Origin: Helicobacter cetorum
GTDB taxonomy: Bacteria; Campylobacterota; Campylobacteria; Campylobacterales; UBA6016
Direction: 5' to 3'
Length of the DNA stretch: 64,000 nt
NCBI GenBank assembly: GCA_022729705.1
Contig: DZAX01000005.1
Location: 11,704-75,703 of the forward strand
Below, piece after piece: positions 17,238 to 25,648 of this stretch. Under the pieces are notes generated by a model. It worked only from the letters and a program-made list of their open reading frames with translations. It did not search any database and was not told the origin of the DNA. Made by a program: the position numbers and the translations under genes. Position 1 is the first letter of the stretch, and each line of letters opens with the position of its first letter.

Positions 17238-19904
17238 ATGACAGTTGGGCAGATAGAAAACAATCTTAATATCCTTATCGAAAAAATATCAAATGATTCG
17301 TTTGTATTTGACCTACTACTTGCTTTTGGTTTCCCCAATGCCACCATAAAGAGACTGCAAAACAGCGAACATAATCAACTGCTTTTTTTAGGGGAGTTGG
17401 CGCTTAGAAAGCATCTGTTTTTTAAGGTATCGACGGCGGATGAGCTGTATTCCACACTGGAAACATTATCCGCAGACCCAAGGGTAGTCAAGCACTCTTC
17501 ACGGTTTATCATCGTTACAGATTTCAATCAACTGCTTGCACTTGACACCAAGACAAAAGACACCCTTGACATCGTGATGACCGACATAGCCAAGCGCTAT
17601 GATTTTTTCTTACCGTGGGCTGGCATGGAAAAAGCCACATATCAGGACGAAAACCCTGCCGATGTCAAAGCATCTCTCAAGATGGCGAAGCTATACGACG
17701 AGCTACAAAAAAACAACTCTTTCAAGACAAAAGACGAGATACACTCGCTAAATGTGTTTTTGACGAGGCTACTGTTTTGCTATTTCGCAGAAGATACAAA
17801 TATCTTTGCCGATAATGTATTTACCGAGTCAATCGCATCGCATACGGCTGTTGATGGAAGCGACCTAGATACATATCTCTCACGACTATTTGAAATATTT
17901 AACACACCAGAAAAAGACAGAGACAAAGGCATCCCAGCCTATCTAAATGCCTTTCCATATGTGAACGGCGGACTCTTTAGCCAGAGTCACCCAGTACCGA
18001 AGTTTACCGCCAAGTCAAGAGCCGTGATGATAGAAGTCGGCGGGCTAAACTGGTCGGAGATAAACCCGGATATATTTGGCTCTATGATACAAGCGGTGGT
18101 AACACCGGAGCACCGTGGCACTATGGGCATGCACTACACAAGTATGCCAAATATCATGAAAGTCATTGAGCCGCTGTTTTTGGACGAACTGTACGACGAG
18201 CTCAAAAGAAGCTTTGACAACAAAACAAAACTCCTCGCTCTTCACAAACGCATAGCCAAAATCAAAATCTTTGACCCAGCTTGCGGAAGCGGAAACTTCC
18301 TCATTATCTCTTACAAAAAACTCCGAGAACTGGAAATAAGCATCTTAAAAAGAATCGATACCTTGTCAGCTCAACCAAGCTTCACATTTAGCGAAATCAA
18401 ACTCACACAGTTTTACGGCATAGAGCTAGACGACTTCGCCCACGAGGTGGCTATGCTCTCGCTATGGCTTGCCGAACATCAGATGAATCTGGAGTTTTAT
18501 AAGGCGTTTGACAGGACTACTCCGAGTTTGCCGCTACAAGAGGGCGGGAATATCGTTTGCGGAAACGCTACAAGGCTAGATTGGAGCGATGTTTGCCCAA
18601 AAAATGAGGGTGATGAGATTTATGTTTTGGGTAATCCGCCGTATTTGGGAGCAAGTATTCAAGCAAAAATACACAAAGAAGATATGGCAACAGTTTTTAA
18701 GGGCATTAAAAATTATAAAAACTTAGACTATATATCTTGTTGGTTTTATATTGGCTCACACTATATTCAAAATATAAATGCAAAAGTGGCTTTTGTTACT
18801 ACAAACTCAATTTGTCAAGGCGAACAAATTGAATATTTATGGACTCATTTATTAAAAAATTCAGAAATATTTTTTGCCCATCAATCTTTTAAATGGAAGA
18901 ACAGTGCAAAAGATAACGCAGGCGTTATAGTTGCAATTATTGGTTTAGCGAATAAAAGCAACATAACAAAAAAATGGCTTTTTAGGGAAAGCGTCAAGCA
19001 AGAAGTTGGTTTTATTAATGCGTATTTAGCAAACTCTAGTGTATCAATTATTGCAAAAAAAACCAAACCAATTTCTAAATTGTCAAAAATGGTTTTGGGC
19101 GATGCTCCAAAAGATGGTGGTAATTTAATTTTGTCCGCATTAGAAAAAGACGAGCTAATTTTTAAATATTCGGATATAGCAAAAATAATTTATAAATATA
19201 TTGGAGCTAGCGAATTTATAAGAGGACAAAAGAGATGGTGTTTATGGATTGAGGATTCAAATTTAGAACTAGCAACTTCAATACCGGAGGTTAGACACAG
19301 AATAGAAAAAGTAAGAACTATGAGGTTGAACAGCAAAAAAGAAGCTACGCAAGAGTATGCAAAAATGCCTCATAGGTTCGTAGAGATTCGATACAGAAAA
19401 ACTGAATCTACAATTATAATTCCAAATGTGTCTTCTGAGCGTAGAGAATATATTCCTATTGGTTTTTTGAATAGTGAAACAATTATTGCAAATTCTGCAA
19501 GTGCTATTTACGGTGGTTCTATTATTGATTTTGGAGTATTAACATCAAAAATGCACATGGTATGGATGCGAACAGTCGCAGGAAGATTAAAAACAGATTA
19601 CCGTTATTCATCGGCTCTAGTTTACAACACATTCCCATTTCCAAATATCTCACAAACCCAAAAAGACGAGCTAACAGAATTTGCATTTGGCGTTTTAGAC
19701 GAACGAGAATATCACAGCGAAAAAACACTAGCCCAGCTCTACGACCCGAACAAAATGCCGGAGGGCTTACGCAAAGCACATCATGCGCTAGATATTGCCA
19801 TAGAAAAATGCTACCGCCAAAAACCGTTTGAAAGCGACGAAGAACGCCTCGAATATCTTTTTAAGATGTATGAAGAGATGACGGGGAAGGAGAATAAAAG
19901 ATGA
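17238..19904 (+). CDS. MmeI-family (type IIL / BREX PglX-like) N6-adenine DNA methyltransferase with TRD; N-terminal nuclease motif apparently degenerate (888 aa)
   Basis: Collinear with MmeI as I recall it: LTRLLFCYFAEDTNIF, AFPYVNGGLF, MHYTS, motif I FDPACGSGNFLI (18273-), motif IV GNPPY (NPPY 18633-18644), SICQGEQ, YRYSSALVYNTFPFP, LAQLYDP..MPEGLRKAHHALD. Where MmeI has D..EMK, this protein reads LGELALRKH (17394-17414). Confidence 0.85.
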   Translation: MTVGQIENNLNILIEKISNDSFVFDLLLAFGFPNATIKRLQNSEHNQLLFLGELALRKHLFFKVSTADELYSTLETLSADPRVVKHSSRFIIVTDFNQLLALDTKTKDTLDIVMTDIAKRYDFFLPWAGMEKATYQDENPADVKASLKMAKLYDELQKNNSFKTKDEIHSLNVFLTRLLFCYFAEDTNIFADNVFTESIASHTAVDGSDLDTYLSRLFEIFNTPEKDRDKGIPAYLNAFPYVNGGLFSQSHPVPKFTAKSRAVMIEVGGLNWSEINPDIFGSMIQAVVTPEHRGTMGMHYTSMPNIMKVIEPLFLDELYDELKRSFDNKTKLLALHKRIAKIKIFDPACGSGNFLIISYKKLRELEISILKRIDTLSAQPSFTFSEIKLTQFYGIELDDFAHEVAMLSLWLAEHQMNLEFYKAFDRTTPSLPLQEGGNIVCGNATRLDWSDVCPKNEGDEIYVLGNPPYLGASIQAKIHKEDMATVFKGIKNYKNLDYISCWFYIGSHYIQNINAKVAFVTTNSICQGEQIEYLWTHLLKNSEIFFAHQSFKWKNSAKDNAGVIVAIIGLANKSNITKKWLFRESVKQEVGFINAYLANSSVSIIAKKTKPISKLSKMVLGDAPKDGGNLILSALEKDELIFKYSDIAKIIYKYIGASEFIRGQKRWCLWIEDSNLELATSIPEVRHRIEKVRTMRLNSKKEATQEYAKMPHRFVEIRYRKTESTIIIPNVSSERREYIPIGFLNSETIIANSASAIYGGSIIDFGVLTSKMHMVWMRTVAGRLKTDYRYSSALVYNTFPFPNISQTQKDELTEFAFGVLDEREYHSEKTLAQLYDPNKMPEGLRKAHHALDIAIEKCYRQKPFESDEERLEYLFKMYEEMTGKENKR

Positions 19905-20293
19905 GTAATTTAACATTTTCGGCATTTCAGTTAATAGTTGATGAAAAAGTTCCAAATATAAGTAATTTTATCGAATATAGAAATGAACAGTATGATACTA
20001 AAGATAATATTTATAGGGTCACTACTAAACAAATTAAAAATAAATATTATTGGATTTATATGGAATATGGTGGGGAATTGCCTTATGGTGAAAAGGTATA
20101 TGACAAGGAAAAATCAGAAATATTGAATAATCCAAGAACAAAAAGTCAAGCTGAGTTAAATAAGCAACTTTTCTGTCTTTATGATTTTGAACAACATACT
20201 TTTTATATTTCAGATGGCAGGAAAAAAGGCTTTCTTGAAGAATATTTAAAATACAAATTATCAAAAGATATAGTGATTAAGAGATTTTTTTAA
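19901..20293 (+). CDS. hypothetical protein, 5' part of a probably frameshifted gene (130 aa as read)
   Basis: ATGA overlap with the methyltransferase stop. Very AT-rich. The ORF ends in a T7 tract (20285-20291) and a stop-free continuation runs in the +1 frame over 20292-20492. Confidence 0.5.
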   Translation: MSNLTFSAFQLIVDEKVPNISNFIEYRNEQYDTKDNIYRVTTKQIKNKYYWIYMEYGGELPYGEKVYDKEKSEILNNPRTKSQAELNKQLFCLYDFEQHTFYISDGRKKGFLEEYLKYKLSKDIVIKRFF

Positions 20294-20540
20294 AAGTCCA
20301 GAACAATTTCTTGAACATGTTAAAACAATCGAAAGTATAAGTTTTACTTCAAAACACAATCTTTTTTCTAACCTAAAAGATATATTTGGAGAACCGAATG
20401 ATATATTTGGCTTAGGACAGCCAGAAAATTTTAAAATGGATATTACCTACAATGAAAGAAAAATGACGGAAAGTTTTAAAACAAAATTTTAGGAAGATAC
20501 GAACAAAGTGCAGTACAAGAAAATTTATTAAACATATTAG

Positions 20541-21002
20541 ATGGATTACAAAATGTATAGTGAACATATAAAAATTTTATTTTTAACAACTATAGGTATT
20601 TTTATAATATGCTTTTCTATTGATGTTTCCATTAGTGAATCATTAATGCAAAACTTTATCACTTTTCTTTCAATTACATTCGGTTTTTATATGACAAGTC
20701 TATCAGTTTTGTACGATTCAAAATATATTAAAAAACTATATGATGAAATTGACCCTAAAAAACCAACTCAACGAAAAATACATACCTTAAAAAGTTATTT
20801 TAAAGCTAGTGCTTATTGGTCTTTGTTTTCTATTGGCTTATTAATGATTTATTCCTTAGCTACAAAAGTTGAAAGCAATATTTTGGTTTTAAGTACTTTT
20901 TTTGAGAGTCTTTTGGTTTTTATTGTTTTTGTAAATTTTGTCTTTATGTTTCTGTTGTTTAATGTATTTATTAATGGCTTGGTTGAAGAGGCGGCAAAAT
21001 GA
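20541..21002 (+). CDS. small integral membrane protein, about 4 TM segments (153 aa)
   Basis: Four hydrophobic stretches (ILFLTTIGIFIICFSI, FITFLSITFGFYMTSLSVL, YWSLFSIGLLMIYSLA, LLVFIVFVNFVFMFLLFNVFI). ATGA overlap with the next gene. No family recognised. Confidence 0.55.
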   Translation: MDYKMYSEHIKILFLTTIGIFIICFSIDVSISESLMQNFITFLSITFGFYMTSLSVLYDSKYIKKLYDEIDPKKPTQRKIHTLKSYFKASAYWSLFSIGLLMIYSLATKVESNILVLSTFFESLLVFIVFVNFVFMFLLFNVFINGLVEEAAK

Positions 21003-21985
21003 CAGAAAATAGCAATATCCTAATCTACCAAAACGAAAGCGGCAATATCAAAGTCGATGTGAGTTTTGTTGACGGCTCCGTATGGCTATCGCAAGCACAA
21101 ATTTGTGAACTATTTGGCAAAGCAAAATCAACGATTAGTGAGCATATTAGTGCTATTTTTGAAGATGGTGAGCTGGATAGAGAGTCAGTTGTTCGGAATT
21201 ACCGAACAACTGCGAGTGACGGCAAGAGCTACGGTGTAGATTACTACAATCTCGATATGATAATCGCTATAGGCTTTAGGGTAAGGTCATCAACAGGAAC
21301 AAAATTTAGAATCTGGGCAAATGAAAAGCTACGAGAGTACATCACAAAAGGTTTTGTGCTAAACGATGAACGATTTAAAAACGGTACTTCTATGAGCTAC
21401 TTCGACGAACTTCAACAGCGTCTGCGTGAAATCAGGCTTTCAGAACGATTTTTTTATCAAAAAATCAAAGACATCTATATGACAAGTAAAGACTATGACT
21501 CAAAAAATGAAAAGACCATAGAGTTTTTCAAAATCGTACAAAACAAACTACTATGGGCTGTATCTTCTCAAACTGCCGCAGAATTAGTCCATAATAGAGT
21601 GGATATGAGCAAACCTCTTTTGGGGATGAACTCTTTTGATAAAGACTCTAAAAATGTAACAAAAAAAGATGTGAGTATCGCCAAAAATTATCTGGATGCA
21701 GAGGAAATAAAGCTACTTGGTCTTTTGGTTGAGCAGTATTTGGCATTTGCGGAAACTATGGCGATGCAGCAAAGACCGATGTACATGAAAGACTGGATAA
21801 CGAGGCTGGATATGGTTATATCGCTAAACGGCAGGGAGCTTTTGACCCATGCGGGGAAAATCAGCCACGAAATTGCAAAAGCAAAAAGCGAACTAGAGTA
21901 TGGCAAATACAAAGATGTACAGAAAGAACAACAAAAGATTCAGAGCATCAAAGAGCTTGAAGAGGACATAAAGAGGCTAAAATGA
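20999..21985 (+). CDS. RhuM-family (virulence/RhuM) protein (328 aa)
   Basis: N-terminal ILIYQNESGNIKVDV...VWLSQAQICELFGKAKSTISEHI..IFEDGELD..SVVRNYRTTASDGKSY.VDYYNLDMIIAIGFRV.S..GT.FRIWA is the characteristic RhuM signature, seen frequently inside R-M and defence loci. Confidence 0.8.
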   Translation: MTENSNILIYQNESGNIKVDVSFVDGSVWLSQAQICELFGKAKSTISEHISAIFEDGELDRESVVRNYRTTASDGKSYGVDYYNLDMIIAIGFRVRSSTGTKFRIWANEKLREYITKGFVLNDERFKNGTSMSYFDELQQRLREIRLSERFFYQKIKDIYMTSKDYDSKNEKTIEFFKIVQNKLLWAVSSQTAAELVHNRVDMSKPLLGMNSFDKDSKNVTKKDVSIAKNYLDAEEIKLLGLLVEQYLAFAETMAMQQRPMYMKDWITRLDMVISLNGRELLTHAGKISHEIAKAKSELEYGKYKDVQKEQQKIQSIKELEEDIKRLK

Positions 21986-23898
21986 CAAATTTGATAGAAG
22001 TAGAATACCACCAAACAGGCGAGAGCAAAAAGACAAATAGATACGGCATGAGGGAAATGCAGGAAAAAGCATTTGCCGCAAGAGCCGTGCAGTATCTGCT
22101 ACTCAAAGCCCCTCCGGCCTCAGGCAAATCAAGAGCCTTGATGTTTATAGTGCTTGATAAACTAGAGAATCAGGGCATAGACAAAGCAATCGTAGCTGTA
22201 CCAGAACGGTCTATCGGCGGTTCATTTGCCGATACAGACCTAAAAGCAGATGGATTTTTCGCCTCATGGGAACCAAATCCTCATTACAACCTCTGTACGG
22301 GCGGAGGCGAGACAAGCAAAGTTCATACATTCAAAAAATTCCTCTCAAGCGATGAGAAGATACTTATCTGCACCCATGCTACGCTTAGATTTGCGTTCAA
22401 AGAGCTTGAAGACTCACGGTTTGATAATATTTTGCTTGCTATTGACGAATTTCATCATGTATCAGCCGACGGTGACAATCAACTCGGTGAAGTCATCAGA
22501 ACCGTAATGCAAAACTCGAATGCGCATATCATAGCGATGACCGGCTCATATTTTAGGGGTGATAGTATACCTGTTTTGCTTCCAGAAGATGAGGCAAGGT
22601 TTACAAAAGTGACCTACAACTACTACGACCAGCTAAATGGCTATGAATATCTAAAATCTCTCGGTATAGGCTATCACTTTTATCAAGGCAAATATACGAG
22701 TGCGATAAATGAAATATTGGACACAGACAAAAAAACAATACTACACATTCCAAATGTAAACTCCGGCGAATCCACAAAAGATAAACACAAAGAGGTAGAT
22801 ACTATTCTTGATATTATCGGGGAAGTTCAAGAAGTTACAACGGACGGCGTTATACTTGTCAAAAGACATGACGACGGTAAGATTGTAAAAGTAGCCGACT
22901 TGGTTGACGATGACCAAAAGCGACGAGATAAAATAGTCGCTTATCTGCGAAATACCAAGAACGAAGAAGATATGGATCTCATCATCGCCCTTGGTATGGC
23001 AAAAGAGGGGTTTGACTGGTCATTTTGCGAGCATGCTCTTACCGTAGGATACAGAAGCTCATTGACTGAAATCATCCAAATCATAGGGCGAGCAACAAGG
23101 GATAGCAAAAATAAAACCCATGCACAATTTACAAACCTAATCGCCCAGCCGGATGCAGAGGATTTGCAAGTAAAACTATCGGTAAATAATATGCTCAAAG
23201 CGATAACCGCTTCACTGCTGATGGAGCAAGTTTTGGCTCCAAACTTCAAGTTCAAACCAAAATTTGATGATGATAATGAACCACTTCAAAAAGGCGAGCT
23301 AAAAATCAGGGGGTTCAAGAAGCCCTCAAGCAAAAGAGTAGAAGATATACTAGAATCAGACCTCAACGACCTCAAAGCCACAATCTTGCAAGATGAACAA
23401 ATGATAAAAGCAATACCCGGAAATGTTGACCCAGAGGTTATAAACAAGGTACTTATTCCAAAAATTATCAAAGTGAAATATCCTGATTTGAATGACAACG
23501 AAATAGAAGAGATTCGCCAGCATGTAGTCGTTGATAGTGTTATAAAAAACGGTCATATTATTGACCAAGGCGGCAAAAAATTTATCAAAATGGCAAACAA
23601 ATTTGTAAATATTGATGATTTGCGCATCGACCTTATAGATCAAGTAAATCCATTCCAAAGAGCCTTTGAGATTTTGTCAAAATCAGTGACAACGCAAGTG
23701 CTAAAGCTTATACAAGAAAGCATTGAGTCTACGAGAATAGAGATGACGCCTGAAGAGGCAGTGATTTTATATAGGAAAATTCCAGCTTTCAAAAGCGAAC
23801 ACGGCAGGATGCCGGATATTAATGCAAACGACTTTCAAGAAAAAAGAATGGCAGAAGCAATAATATATTTGAATAAACTCAAAAGAGAAAGAGCCTAA
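21982..23898 (+). CDS. SF2 DEAD/DEAH-box (ResIII-like) helicase with about 240-aa C-terminal extension (638 aa)
   Basis: Walker A KAPPASGKS, motif II AIDEFHH (DExH), motif III MTGS, motif VI QIIGRATRD. ATGA overlap with the RhuM gene. 1-nt overlap (TAATG) with the next gene. Confidence 0.8.
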   Translation: MTNLIEVEYHQTGESKKTNRYGMREMQEKAFAARAVQYLLLKAPPASGKSRALMFIVLDKLENQGIDKAIVAVPERSIGGSFADTDLKADGFFASWEPNPHYNLCTGGGETSKVHTFKKFLSSDEKILICTHATLRFAFKELEDSRFDNILLAIDEFHHVSADGDNQLGEVIRTVMQNSNAHIIAMTGSYFRGDSIPVLLPEDEARFTKVTYNYYDQLNGYEYLKSLGIGYHFYQGKYTSAINEILDTDKKTILHIPNVNSGESTKDKHKEVDTILDIIGEVQEVTTDGVILVKRHDDGKIVKVADLVDDDQKRRDKIVAYLRNTKNEEDMDLIIALGMAKEGFDWSFCEHALTVGYRSSLTEIIQIIGRATRDSKNKTHAQFTNLIAQPDAEDLQVKLSVNNMLKAITASLLMEQVLAPNFKFKPKFDDDNEPLQKGELKIRGFKKPSSKRVEDILESDLNDLKATILQDEQMIKAIPGNVDPEVINKVLIPKIIKVKYPDLNDNEIEEIRQHVVVDSVIKNGHIIDQGGKKFIKMANKFVNIDDLRIDLIDQVNPFQRAFEILSKSVTTQVLKLIQESIESTRIEMTPEEAVILYRKIPAFKSEHGRMPDINANDFQEKRMAEAIIYLNKLKRERA

Positions 23899-25049
23899 TG
23901 CTTTCGCTTGAAGAAATACTTAAGAGTGACCCGCTGGGGCTTTTGGGTGAGGTAAAAGCTCAAAATAGGGCGGCAACCGAAGATGAGAGACTTGTAGCCT
24001 CATTTAACGAAATAAATGATTTTATTGATATGCATGGCATGGAGCCGGCAAAATCAACGGATATGAATGAAAGGACACTTTTTTCTAGACTTCAAGGGTT
24101 AAGAGAGCATCCTGACAAGACAAAAGCCTTGAAGCCATATGACCGCTACAATCTTCTGCAAGAAGTAGAAAGTAACTCCATTGATGACATCCTAAACAAC
24201 GATGCTTTCGGTCTGCTTAGTGATGATGCAGATACCGTTTTTGAACTAAAGCATGTTCCAAAGCATAAAGAAATTGCTCAGGCCGACTTTATCGCTTCGA
24301 GAAAACCGTGCAAAGAGTTTGATAAATATGAAATACTATTTAAAGAGTGCCAGCAGGATTTGAGAGATGGCAAAAGAAGGCTTGTAAGATTCAATGAAAA
24401 ATTCATGGAAGAAGGAAGTTTTTTTATTCTTAAAGGGGTAATGGTCTATCTTGAAAAAATAGTTTCAGCCGCCAAAGATAAACACAATAAGATGGATGGT
24501 AGAACATATTGTGTATTTGAAAATGGCACAGAGTCAAATATGCTTATGAGATCTCTTGGAAGGGGGCTTTATGAGGATGGCTATTTCGTAAGCAAACACG
24601 AAGACAGGCTTCTCGATAAATTTGCAAATATAGCAGATGCAGACAAGCGAAGCGGTTTTATATATATCTTAAAATCAAAAAGTACATCTGAAAAAATACA
24701 ATCCATCAAAAATCTATACAAAATAGGCTACTCCACAATAGAAGTTAAGGAGCGAATAAAAAATGCCGAAAACGAACCAACATACTTAATGGCTCCCGTT
24801 TCAGTTGTAAGTATCTATGAATGCTACAATATGAACACTCAGAAGTTTGAACAGTTGATTCATAAATTTTTTGGTAAAGTTTGTCTCAATATAGATATTT
24901 TTGGAAATGATGGACAAAGATATAGCCCAAGAGAATGGTTTGTAGCGCCATTGGACATCATCGAGCAGGCTATTGAGCTAATAATCAGCGAGGAAATAAT
25001 ACATTATCGTTATGACGAGATTGCCAATGGGATTAGGGTTGCAAAATAG
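23898..25049 (+). CDS. T5orf172/MUG113-domain (GIY-YIG superfamily) protein with unrecognised about 240-aa N-terminal region (383 aa)
   Basis: C-terminal GFIYILKSKS...LYKIGYSTIEVKERIKN...REWFVAPLDIIEQAIELI fits the T5orf172 pattern (GxhYhL, KIGxT, R, EWF). Confidence 0.7.
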   Translation: MLSLEEILKSDPLGLLGEVKAQNRAATEDERLVASFNEINDFIDMHGMEPAKSTDMNERTLFSRLQGLREHPDKTKALKPYDRYNLLQEVESNSIDDILNNDAFGLLSDDADTVFELKHVPKHKEIAQADFIASRKPCKEFDKYEILFKECQQDLRDGKRRLVRFNEKFMEEGSFFILKGVMVYLEKIVSAAKDKHNKMDGRTYCVFENGTESNMLMRSLGRGLYEDGYFVSKHEDRLLDKFANIADADKRSGFIYILKSKSTSEKIQSIKNLYKIGYSTIEVKERIKNAENEPTYLMAPVSVVSIYECYNMNTQKFEQLIHKFFGKVCLNIDIFGNDGQRYSPREWFVAPLDIIEQAIELIISEEIIHYRYDEIANGIRVAK

Positions 25050-25074: not shown

Positions 25075-25422
25075 CTAGTTCTTAAAATTCAAACACAAAC
25101 ACTCAATCAACTCTTCATATTCCACACTCGACAGTGTCGCTATTTTCTCGCCGATACGCTTTTTTGAGATAGCTCTGACATGGTTTATCAAAATATCGGA
25201 GTTTTCTTTGAGTTTTTCTCTACTTTTTAGCCTCATTCGGTACGGCTTCATGTCGTCCATAAGCGAAGTTGAGAGCGGCATGACTACGACGGTGTCTAAT
25301 ACGGAGTTTTCATCGTCGCCGGAGATAATGACGGCGTGGCGAATTTTACCTACTTCGTCGCCTTTTTTTGGGTTGAAGTTGATGGTGACTATATCGCCTC
25401 TTTTATAGCCCATCATCCACAC
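25075..25422 (-). CDS. MazF/PemK-family type II toxin (115 aa; start may be Met4 at 25413)
   Basis: KRGDIVTINFNP.KGDE.GKIRHAVIIS...VVVMPLSTS matches the PemK/MazF N-terminal pattern. Overlaps the upstream antitoxin gene. Confidence 0.8.
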   Translation of the reverse strand: MWMMGYKRGDIVTINFNPKKGDEVGKIRHAVIISGDDENSVLDTVVVMPLSTSLMDDMKPYRMRLKSREKLKENSDILINHVRAISKKRIGEKIATLSSVEYEELIECLCLNFKN

Positions 25423-25648
25423 CTAGTTCGCAAAATTCGATGTCTTGATGAGCTTTGAGCTTGTGCAGTTTTTCTAACTTCTCTTTTTTTTCTATCGCAT
25501 CAATAGCGGGCTTTATCAGCGCTTCGTATTTTGAAGATATGAAATATCCCAAACTTTTATTTGCCCGTTTGTCTACTATCTCGCCGATTGCGGTATCCTT
25601 GAGCAAGGATGGTTTATTTTGGATTGCTGTTACGCCAAGCGTTGTCAT
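25403..25648 (-). CDS. antitoxin, Phd/YefM-like (81 aa)
   Basis: Small ORF overlapping the toxin start. The N-terminus (VTAIQNKPSLLKD....EIVDKRANKSLGYFIS.KYEALI) resembles Phd/YefM. Confidence 0.6.
   Translation of the reverse strand: MTTLGVTAIQNKPSLLKDTAIGEIVDKRANKSLGYFISSKYEALIKPAIDAIEKKEKLEKLHKLKAHQDIEFCELGVDDGL

Follow-up and report, generated by a model that had tools for sequence, protein, structure and literature searches.

The gene at positions 17238..19904 (+ strand) of the window, the 64,000-nucleotide stretch of DNA analysed here, encodes an 888-aa protein that, from Pfam matches and comparison with PDB 5HR4, is predicted to be a YeeA/DnmA-type, MmeI-family N6-adenine DNA methyltransferase that carries a target recognition domain of its own. 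The nuclease domain at its N-terminus appears to be dead, and the protein very probably belongs to a three-component RM-like system together with an SF2 helicase (21982-23898) and a T5orf172/GIY-YIG protein (23898-25049). Because the YeeA/DnmA-YeeB-YeeC arrangement was described in 2009, neither the motif loss nor the partnership with helicase and GIY-YIG genes is new in concept; the observation itself, as made in the initial annotation of this DNA, is correct.

Degeneration of the N-terminal nuclease domain

The first 135 residues (17238..17642, + strand) constitute a homologue of the MmeI PD-(D/E)XK nuclease domain from which the catalytic triad is gone. Pfam MmeI_N matched residues 16-158, equivalent to profile positions 19-180 of 181 and thus ~19 positions short of the profile, and the domain is 20 residues shorter than that of MmeI. 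Alignment of the N-terminal domain with a canonical MmeI_N profile by hhalign gave a probability of 98.1-98.8% (E 1e-15 to 7e-14); the profile was built from a search with MmeI residues 1-180 and contained fragments of canonical enzymes only, MmeI itself being absent. The MmeI residues 1-264 used for comparison matched PDB 5HR4 exactly. With phmmer and the single sequence, only residues 87-883 aligned, to MmeI 107-904 (PDB 5HR4; E 1.6e-184), and the first ~86 residues are therefore too diverged for pairwise alignment. The strings RFIIVTDFNQLLALD (residues 89-103) and LTRLLFCYFAEDTNIF (residues 175-190), quoted in the initial annotation as similar to MmeI, are present.

The hhalign register, identical across four runs, placed E53, K63 and S65 opposite MmeI D70, E80 and K82, the stretch E53-S65 (ELALRKHLFFKVS; 17394..17432, + strand) being the counterpart of MmeI D70-K82. 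MAFFT instead aligned E80 with R57 and K82 with H59, which are the Arg and His substitutions originally proposed, and the conclusion is the same: an acidic-x-Lys motif is absent from both registers. The segment QLLFLGELALRKHLFFK, earlier assigned to 17394-17414, in fact comprises residues 47-63 at 17376-17426, the former span covering only E53-H59. Where the segment that carries the aspartate had been described as ~15 residues shorter, hhalign puts 10 missing residues just before the D70 strand and another 8 in the first helix region.

An AF2 model of residues 1-130 (pLDDT 84-92) has the order H22-29, H34-41, E53-56, E60-64, H67-78 and E90-94, consistent with the aligned strands of the domain. 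When the N-terminal AF2 model (pLDDT 80) was compared with the PDB by Foldseek, no match was significant, and the best hits, to tRNA synthetases (E 3e-3, TM ~0.26), were uninformative. PDB 5HR4, in which the nuclease domain of MmeI is disordered, offers no counterpart for the superposition proposed in the initial annotation.

Each of the three residues D70, E80 and K82 is essential in MmeI. Because all three are invariant in the canonical MmeI_N sequences (121/121), and the equivalent columns differ in the 102 relatives of the 888-aa protein, every one of which is missing the triad, its absence from this protein and its relatives is not due to chance, and the earlier claim that the D..EXK motif had been lost is borne out. 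This domain type was present in 392 cluster representatives. Two further sequences were set aside, namely P0390, whose seeming 18-fold repeat match to residues 28-73 proved to be a repetitive artefact sequence, and P0491, a chimeric or frameshifted prediction.

Variant PD-(D/E)XK sites occur in other nucleases, and E53, the counterpart of MmeI D70, shows at least 90% conservation inside the Campylobacterota clade; these features would be consistent with a domain that still cuts like MmeI through a non-canonical site, such as E53 in combination with other acidic residues. However, among the 102 relatives the column equivalent to D70 is Glu in only 59, that equivalent to E80 is Lys or Arg in 89, and that equivalent to K82 holds small or hydrophobic residues (Ala, Val or Thr). 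The conserved residues within the first 100 positions are likewise basic or hydrophobic (R39, K/R57, R89) and form no acidic cluster. Furthermore, YeeA and MslORFHP had no endonuclease activity when expressed alone (Morgan et al. 2009, PMC2731913). A surviving nuclease of this kind is largely refuted, and we consider it extremely improbable. The domain would instead be a descendant of the MmeI PD-(D/E)XK nuclease domain that is predicted to be catalytically dead.

The methyltransferase and its conserved partners

All five Pfam MmeI domains (MmeI_N, MmeI_hel, MmeI_Mtase, MmeI_TRD and MmeI_C) were detected above threshold in the 888-aa protein, reproducing the MmeI layout of N-terminal domain, helical spacer, gamma N6A-MTase, TRD and C-terminal bundle. 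More than 120 homologues of the methylase were found in Campylobacterota, at 63-76% identity. Methyltransferase motif I (DPACGSG, residues 346-352; 18273..18293, + strand) is invariant in the clade alignment, and catalytic motif IV (NPPY, residues 466-469; 18633..18644, + strand) carries the Tyr equivalent to DnmA Y465, which DnmA requires for activity. The protein is thus an active-looking gamma-class N6-adenine methyltransferase as judged from its motifs, and with DPACGSG and NPPY intact and PD-ExK absent, its initial description as a methyltransferase-only MmeI homologue is upheld.

Morgan et al. (2009, PMC2731913) recognized a 'second set' of MmeI homologues without the PD-ExK motif, whose genes 'invariably' adjoin those of a DEAD helicase and a GIY-YIG protein, and compared this set with Type I systems. 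The 888-aa protein has the same combination of a missing PD-ExK motif, diverged first ~100 residues and high similarity over the rest, and its gene is accompanied by those of a YeeB-like DEAD helicase and a YeeC-like GIY-YIG/T5orf172 protein; these features place it among the YeeA/DnmA-type homologues. Strand and gene order also agree with YeeABC, the methylase being followed by a helicase of ~640 aa and then by a T5orf172/GIY-YIG protein of ~380 aa. Here, however, three genes spanning 2.1 kb lie between methylase and helicase.

The YeeB-like SF2 helicase (638 aa; 21982..23898, + strand; Pfam DEAD, ResIII and Helicase_C) carries the motifs PASGKS (45-50), DEFH (155-158), TGS (187-189) and QIIGRATR (366-373), all invariant in 26 diverse sequences. 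It is the best conserved of the three proteins, at 49-83% identity to the helicases encoded after the methylase in related loci, and at 62-64% to those directly after the methylase in the Bacillaceae loci L004-L010. Searches of PDB sequences by phmmer and by profile gave nothing for the helicase beyond a marginal match to DHX58 (E 3e-4).

The YeeC-like T5orf172/GIY-YIG-type protein (383 aa; 23898..25049, + strand; Pfam T5orf172 and MUG113) is a predicted nuclease. Its GFIY (253-256), YKIG (274-277), R286 and E346 are invariant in 24 diverse homologues, and it has the GIY and YIG strands, the helix 1 Arg and the metal-binding Glu of the GIY-YIG superfamily; between residues 251 and 349, the AF2 model has the order E251-260, E273-279, H283-292, E301-310 and H314-328. 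The spacing from the GIY to the YIG motif is 18 residues, longer than the typical ~10-11. The protein is 41-44% identical to the product of the third gene in the Bacillaceae loci, and its homologues are labelled 'GIY-YIG nuclease family protein' by NCBI. Foldseek with the whole AF2 model (pTM 0.36) gave no PDB match at E <= 0.001 and only weak eIF5A/SH3-like hits, and searches of PDB sequences by phmmer and profile returned no match to this protein.

By tblastn, the helicase and T5orf172 genes both followed the methylase in nearly all of the ~70 related loci with enough flanking sequence, which span Bacillota, Bacteroidota, Proteobacteria, Chlamydiota, Actinomycetota and others. This near-universal synteny identifies the two proteins as conserved partners of the methylase. 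The 75 related loci were retrieved with an inexact YeeA sequence as query, the best match being 88% (Aneurinibacillus) and B. subtilis not among them. In the Bacillaceae loci retrieved with this query, the NPPY Tyr lies at residue 465, as does DnmA Y465, and the methylases share 45-48% identity with the 888-aa protein. Exact look-up of the Bacillaceae orthologues returned generic names only.

In B. subtilis, YeeA is DnmA, a site-specific m6A methylase that affects gene expression, and deletion of dnmA, yeeB or yeeC left plasmid transformation and infection by three phages unchanged; phage genomes show no depletion of the DnmA site, and the authors spoke of an RM relic. These results, along with the distance of 2.1 kb and the unrelated genes that separate the partners from the methylase in the window, would be consistent with a functionally orphan methyltransferase of regulatory or epigenetic role; the helicase and T5orf172 genes would then be a remnant, or a separate module, and would not act with it in restriction. 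Yet the three genes are kept together across phyla, the helicase is well conserved, and the motifs of both the helicase and the GIY-YIG protein are invariant; we take this to argue for purifying selection on activity. Moreover, inactivation of yeeAB sensitized Vibrio crassostreae to some phages, resistance to a phage group being lost, and B. subtilis YeeB and YeeC lack stretches found in the Vibrio proteins, as the same authors noted. We therefore regard an orphan methylase as rather unlikely.

YeeABC is a widespread RM-like gene set for which the tests in B. subtilis were negative whereas the genetics in Vibrio were positive. The Campylobacterota clade, which is well conserved and has its motifs intact in all three proteins, could be better suited to experiments than the B. 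subtilis copy, which appears to be inactive.

Under the favoured reading of a three-component RM-like system, the methylase would mark one strand of an asymmetric site and read its modification state, and the degenerate nuclease domain may serve as an interface, or docking module, through which the helicase and nuclease are recruited or licensed. As Type III, Type ISP and Type I enzymes do, the system would let its sites communicate along the DNA, here by means of the ATP-driven helicase, and this communication would solve the self/non-self problem posed by hemi-methylated asymmetric sites, with the GIY-YIG protein, the predicted nuclease, presumably cutting the DNA. The initial annotation had likewise named the helicase and GIY-YIG protein as the likely effector, a reading that agrees with the conclusion of Morgan et al. 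(2009, PMC2731913) on homologues without the endonuclease motif; their conservation as partners in the ~70 loci is observed, and their role as effector would agree with the genetic support from Vibrio crassostreae, although the effect was not seen in B. subtilis.

A variable gene slot between methylase and helicase

The 2.1 kb that part the helicase and nuclease genes from the methylase hold three unrelated genes. The first is a 130-aa ORF (19901..20293, + strand) that overlaps the methylase stop codon by 4 nt and is annotated as a gene in the public record; it had no family match, and no homologue in the other related loci. It is followed by a 153-aa hydrophobic, membrane-like ORF (20541..21002, + strand) in a stretch of 25.5% GC, and by a RhuM-family protein (20999..21985, + strand) that matched Pfam Virulence_RhuM (E 5e-97) and PADLOC PDC-S05 (E 3e-129). 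The gap between methylase and helicase reaches ~7 kb in other Campylobacterota loci, and the defence-type genes found in Campylobacterota slots include RhuM, Fic, ApeA, HEPN-ApeA, SIR2-HerA, and AAA_13 with nSTAND/Mrr and Schlafen-like genes.

Overlapping start and stop codons join the genes in the window into one transcription unit; promoter and terminator scans gave no signal above shuffled expectation. In Campylobacterota, the operon has a variable, defence-type cargo in addition to its three core components. More tentatively, and with the odds against it, the YeeA-YeeB-YeeC operon of Campylobacterota may be a carrier with an internal, translationally coupled and fast-turnover slot for defence genes. 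These genes would be expressed along with a restriction mechanism, and perhaps linked to it in function; in this mechanism the dead PD-(D/E)XK domain would recruit the helicase and GIY-YIG nuclease, and two short, conserved acidic motifs in the N-terminal part of the YeeC-like protein (residues 3-16 and 94-107) would act as docking peptides. No earlier description of a defence-gene slot in the YeeABC operon was found in a limited literature search. Such a variable slot inside the operon offers a practical hunting ground for new accessory defence genes.

Comparison with known restriction and defence systems

The 888-aa protein shares its five-domain layout with MmeI (Type IIL/IIG, PDB 5HR4), and the N-terminal domains of the two are homologous by profile comparison, but E53/K63/S65 stand in place of D70/E80/K82, and the PD-ExK catalytic residues typical of the MmeI family proper are absent. 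Members of that family proper are single polypeptides that cut DNA ~20 nt from their site; MmeI needs no partner genes, whereas the YeeA/DnmA-type subfamily has two partners.

PglX of BREX is similarly an MmeI-related N6-adenine methylase without nuclease activity that acts together with partner proteins and modifies a single strand of its asymmetric site, and the initial annotation had drawn this parallel. In addition, PADLOC gave weak matches to PglX (best E 1.2e-6) and a partial match to DrmMI (E 3.6e-37), as would be expected of a methyltransferase from a BREX-like or DISARM-like system that blocks phage replication without cleavage. However, the NCBIfam BREX-1 PglX model scored 31.5 bits against a cut-off of 500, whereas the best PADLOC model was Type IIG REase-MTase, with an end-to-end match of 1036 bits. 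Genes for PglZ, BrxC and BrxL were absent from 5980-33566 and from the related loci, as were those for DrmA and DrmB from the neighbourhood and the related loci; the partners here are instead a helicase and a GIY-YIG-type protein. Given these scores and the missing core genes, we reject membership of BREX (PglX) or DISARM, and a blocking system of similar design seems highly implausible. The BREX parallel holds as a loose analogy, the exact precedent being YeeA/DnmA-YeeB-YeeC.

The proposed three-component RM-like system also resembles Type ISP (LlaGI, LlaBIII), Type III (EcoP15I) and Type I enzymes in uniting a nuclease and an SF2 helicase-like ATPase with a site-specific adenine methylase and TRD. 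Of these enzymes, Type ISP and Type III, in contrast to Type I, recognize asymmetric sites that are methylated on one strand, and therefore need communication along DNA; by analogy, such communication may serve as a working model for YeeABC. The three functions reside here in separate polypeptides, as opposed to one in Type ISP or Mod/Res in Type III, and the predicted nuclease belongs to the GIY-YIG/T5orf172 type and not to Mrr or PD-(D/E)XK. The helicase also differs from those of the Type ISP, III and I enzymes in that, save for the marginal DHX58 match, sequence searches detected no relative of it among solved structures. Finally, the insertion of genes between modification and restriction functions is shared with Type I RM and BREX loci, where accessory defence genes are embedded in the same manner (PADLOC 'PDC' candidates, e.g., RhuM/PDC-S05), the difference being that the host operon here is YeeABC.

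Loss of the nuclease motif in the methylase

The methylase of the window (17238-19904, + strand; 888 aa) contains all five Pfam domains of the MmeI family, and its methyltransferase motifs are intact (DPACGSG, residues 346-352; NPPY, 466-469). Its MmeI_N domain is about 19 positions short, because residues 16-158 align to positions 19-180 of the 181-position Pfam profile. MmeI (5HR4) was the sole match among solved structures (E 1.6e-184), with the alignment limited to methylase residues 87-883 and MmeI residues 107-904. A methylase of the BREX or DISARM type would be a less likely reading: PADLOC matches to PglX and DrmMI were found, weak or partial, and the top PADLOC model was a Type IIG REase-MTase, matched end to end at 1036 bits.

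The initial annotation had proposed that the N-terminal domain lost the D..EXK nuclease motif. The MmeI residues 1-264 used here match 5HR4 exactly, and the catalytic residues are thus D70, E80 and K82 in ..GFVDLFWPGILLIEMKSRGK..; each of these is essential, and residues 1-155, which form the nuclease domain, are disordered in the crystal (Callahan et al. 2016). The strings cited in the annotation were found in the methylase, including the stretch QLLFLGELALRKHLFFK, although this lies at 17376-17426, and the interval first assigned to it, 17394-17414, spans only E53-H59. The register proposed there (E80 to R57, K82 to H59) was recovered by MAFFT with MmeI and 120 close homologues, with a 13-residue gap, but not by hhalign. 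The latter compared a profile of 102 relatives of the methylase (the window, 71 loci of many phyla and 30 clade members) with one of 121 canonical MmeI_N sequences, MmeI included, and aligned them with a probability of 98.1-98.8% (E 1e-15 to 7e-14), pairing E53 with D70, K63 with E80 and S65 with K82. The same pairing was obtained in global mode, in local mode, with a diverse-only subset and in a low-MAC-threshold run; it places deletions of 10 residues immediately ahead of the D70 strand and of 8 residues near helix 1.

D70, E80 and K82 are invariant in the canonical set (121/121), whereas the equivalent columns of the relatives hold E (59/102), K or R (89/102) and A/V/T, respectively; this profile-profile comparison confirmed the loss of the motif. 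The conserved residues within positions 1-100 of the diverse set are R39, K/R57, R89 and hydrophobic positions, with no acidic cluster among them, and residual nuclease activity of this domain is a less likely explanation. An AF2 model of residues 1-170 (mean pLDDT 80; 84-92 over residues 1-130) predicts two strands (53-56 and 60-64), then a helix (67-78) and a further strand (90-94), an order that would be expected if the 'D' strand begins at E53 and the 'ExK' strand ends with K63-S65; a Foldseek search of the model against the PDB gave no significant match. The N-terminal domain is homologous to the nuclease domain of MmeI but has lost the triad, and this loss is a trait of the entire subfamily, not a private mutation. 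The domain type comprises 392 representatives of 50%-identity clusters.

Conserved partners and a possible division of labour

More than 120 homologues of the methylase, all of 880-900 aa, occur at 63-76% identity in Sulfurospirillum, Sulfurimonas and Arcobacter, and a genome scan identified 75 related loci in many taxa, including Bacillaceae, lactobacilli, streptococci, Bacteroidota, Acinetobacter, Psychrobacter, Chlamydiota, Actinomycetales, Eremiobacterota and others. Wherever the flank was long enough, tblastn almost always recovered the methylase, then an SF2 helicase, then a T5orf172 protein. The helicase of the window (21982-23898, +; DEAD, ResIII and Helicase_C domains) matched no solved structure in sequence, apart from a marginal hit to DHX58; it is followed by the T5orf172/MUG113 protein (23898-25049, +). 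Identities to the window proteins in tblastn were 49-83% for the helicase and 27-69% for the T5orf172 protein; across related loci L004-L078, the helicase was consistently the most conserved of the three, the methylase reaching 36-64%. Walker A (PASGKS), DEFH, TGS and QxxGRxxR are invariant among 26 diverse helicases, as are G253, Y256, K275, G277, R286 and E346 among 24 diverse T5orf172 proteins, a pattern that would be expected of active enzymes.

The arrangement has been described before. Morgan et al. (2009) distinguished two sets of MmeI homologues, the first with a PD-ExK motif and the second without it, differing over the first 100 residues and 'invariably' adjoining a YeeB-like helicase of the DEAD family and a YeeC-like GIY-YIG protein. 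They obtained no endonuclease activity from YeeA or MslORFHP, and proposed a Type I-like system, modifying a single strand, in which the altered N-terminal domain contacts a helicase and a nuclease that are distinct subunits. Both the initial observation and its interpretation, that the helicase and GIY-YIG protein are the likely effector, thus independently reproduce a published description; the interpretation is supported by synteny, intact partner motifs and that study. The window adds a member to this known group. Later work identified YeeA as DnmA, which places m6A in GACGAG. The alternative of an orphan methylase whose partners are relics would agree with Bacillus subtilis, where a restriction or anti-phage phenotype was not found and the locus was termed a relic; this is less likely here, given the conserved partner motifs, and inactivation of yeeAB in Vibrio crassostreae abolished resistance to one phage group.

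Homology, triad loss, intact partner motifs and synteny are what the sequence comparisons show. In a working YeeABC system, the methylase, through its TRD, would recognise an asymmetric site and methylate it on one strand, and the inactive nuclease domain might serve as an interface for the helicase and nuclease partners. Sites would communicate along DNA through the ATP-driven helicase, such that cutting, presumably by the GIY-YIG-type protein, would be triggered only by arrays of unmodified sites. The same logic explains how Type III and Type ISP enzymes cope with asymmetric sites that are hemi-methylated.

The T5orf172 protein also carries two copies of an acidic-hydrophobic motif, S-[LI]-[DE]-[DE]-I-[LF]-x-D-D-x-[FL]-G-[LI]-L, at 23904-23945 (residues 3-16) and 24177-24218 (residues 94-107). 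Both lie within low-confidence AF2 segments, the motif is kept in homologues of several phyla, and the copies could act as peptides onto which the helicase or methylase docks. Residues ~160-235 are conserved and predicted to form a small beta-rich domain (strands within 162-231) with invariant R202, N209, T211 and G228; Foldseek gave only weak, non-significant resemblance to SH3-like barrels (eIF5A, SAWADEE/Tudor).

Variable genes between methylase and helicase

Defence-type genes of variable content, spanning 1-7 kb, separate methylase from helicase in each of the seven Campylobacterota loci examined: the window (19901-21985), L001/L002 (L001, 12655-19255), L003 (12649-17629), L080 (12661-13797), L081 (12661-15979), L082 (12656-15454) and L083 (12658-17369). 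A 4-nt overlap with the methylase stop codon is usual for the first of these genes. The sets comprise Fic alone; ApeA-like, unknown and RhuM; HEPN-ApeA, DUF2513 and Fic; AAA_13, nSTAND3/Mrr and Schlafen/AlbA; and SIR2 and DUF87/HerA with Fic, joined by an unknown gene in L003 and a DSPc phosphatase-like gene in L083. The window carries a 130-aa ORF without family match (19901-20293, +), a 153-aa hydrophobic, membrane-like ORF (20541-21002, +) and RhuM (20999-21985, +). From the methylase to the T5orf172 gene all genes are co-directional, and each start codon overlaps the preceding stop codon save at a 247-bp gap before the 153-aa ORF; within this slot, the GC content drops to 25.5% at 20000-20999. 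Directly after the T5orf172 gene stands a MazF/PemK-family toxin gene (25075-25422, - strand; Pfam E 1.5e-24), overlapped upstream by an 81-aa ORF without family match, a likely antitoxin (25403-25648, -). The island is bounded by a Cys/Met-metabolism PLP enzyme gene and groES-groEL, with housekeeping genes on the flanks.

The gap was scored in 64 loci. In 36/64 the helicase begins no more than 100 bp after the methylase, and 10/64 hold more than 1 kb; the latter class takes in the three Campylobacterota loci scored, and Schlafen-like, Fic, DUF3800 and PemK genes are among its insertions. In L037 a PemK-like gene fills the slot. A single gene of ~190-250 aa, belonging to no family and recurrent in lactobacilli and streptococci, occupies the gap in 16/64. 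The recurrent protein of ~226-254 aa encoded in the gap in these lineages and their relatives, likewise without a Pfam family (L019, L020, L026, L028, L030, L031, L035, L039, L057 and L058; e.g., L020, 12683-13447), may be a fourth system component there. No description of such a slot was found in the YeeABC literature cited here; similar accessory genes lie inside Type I RM and BREX operons.
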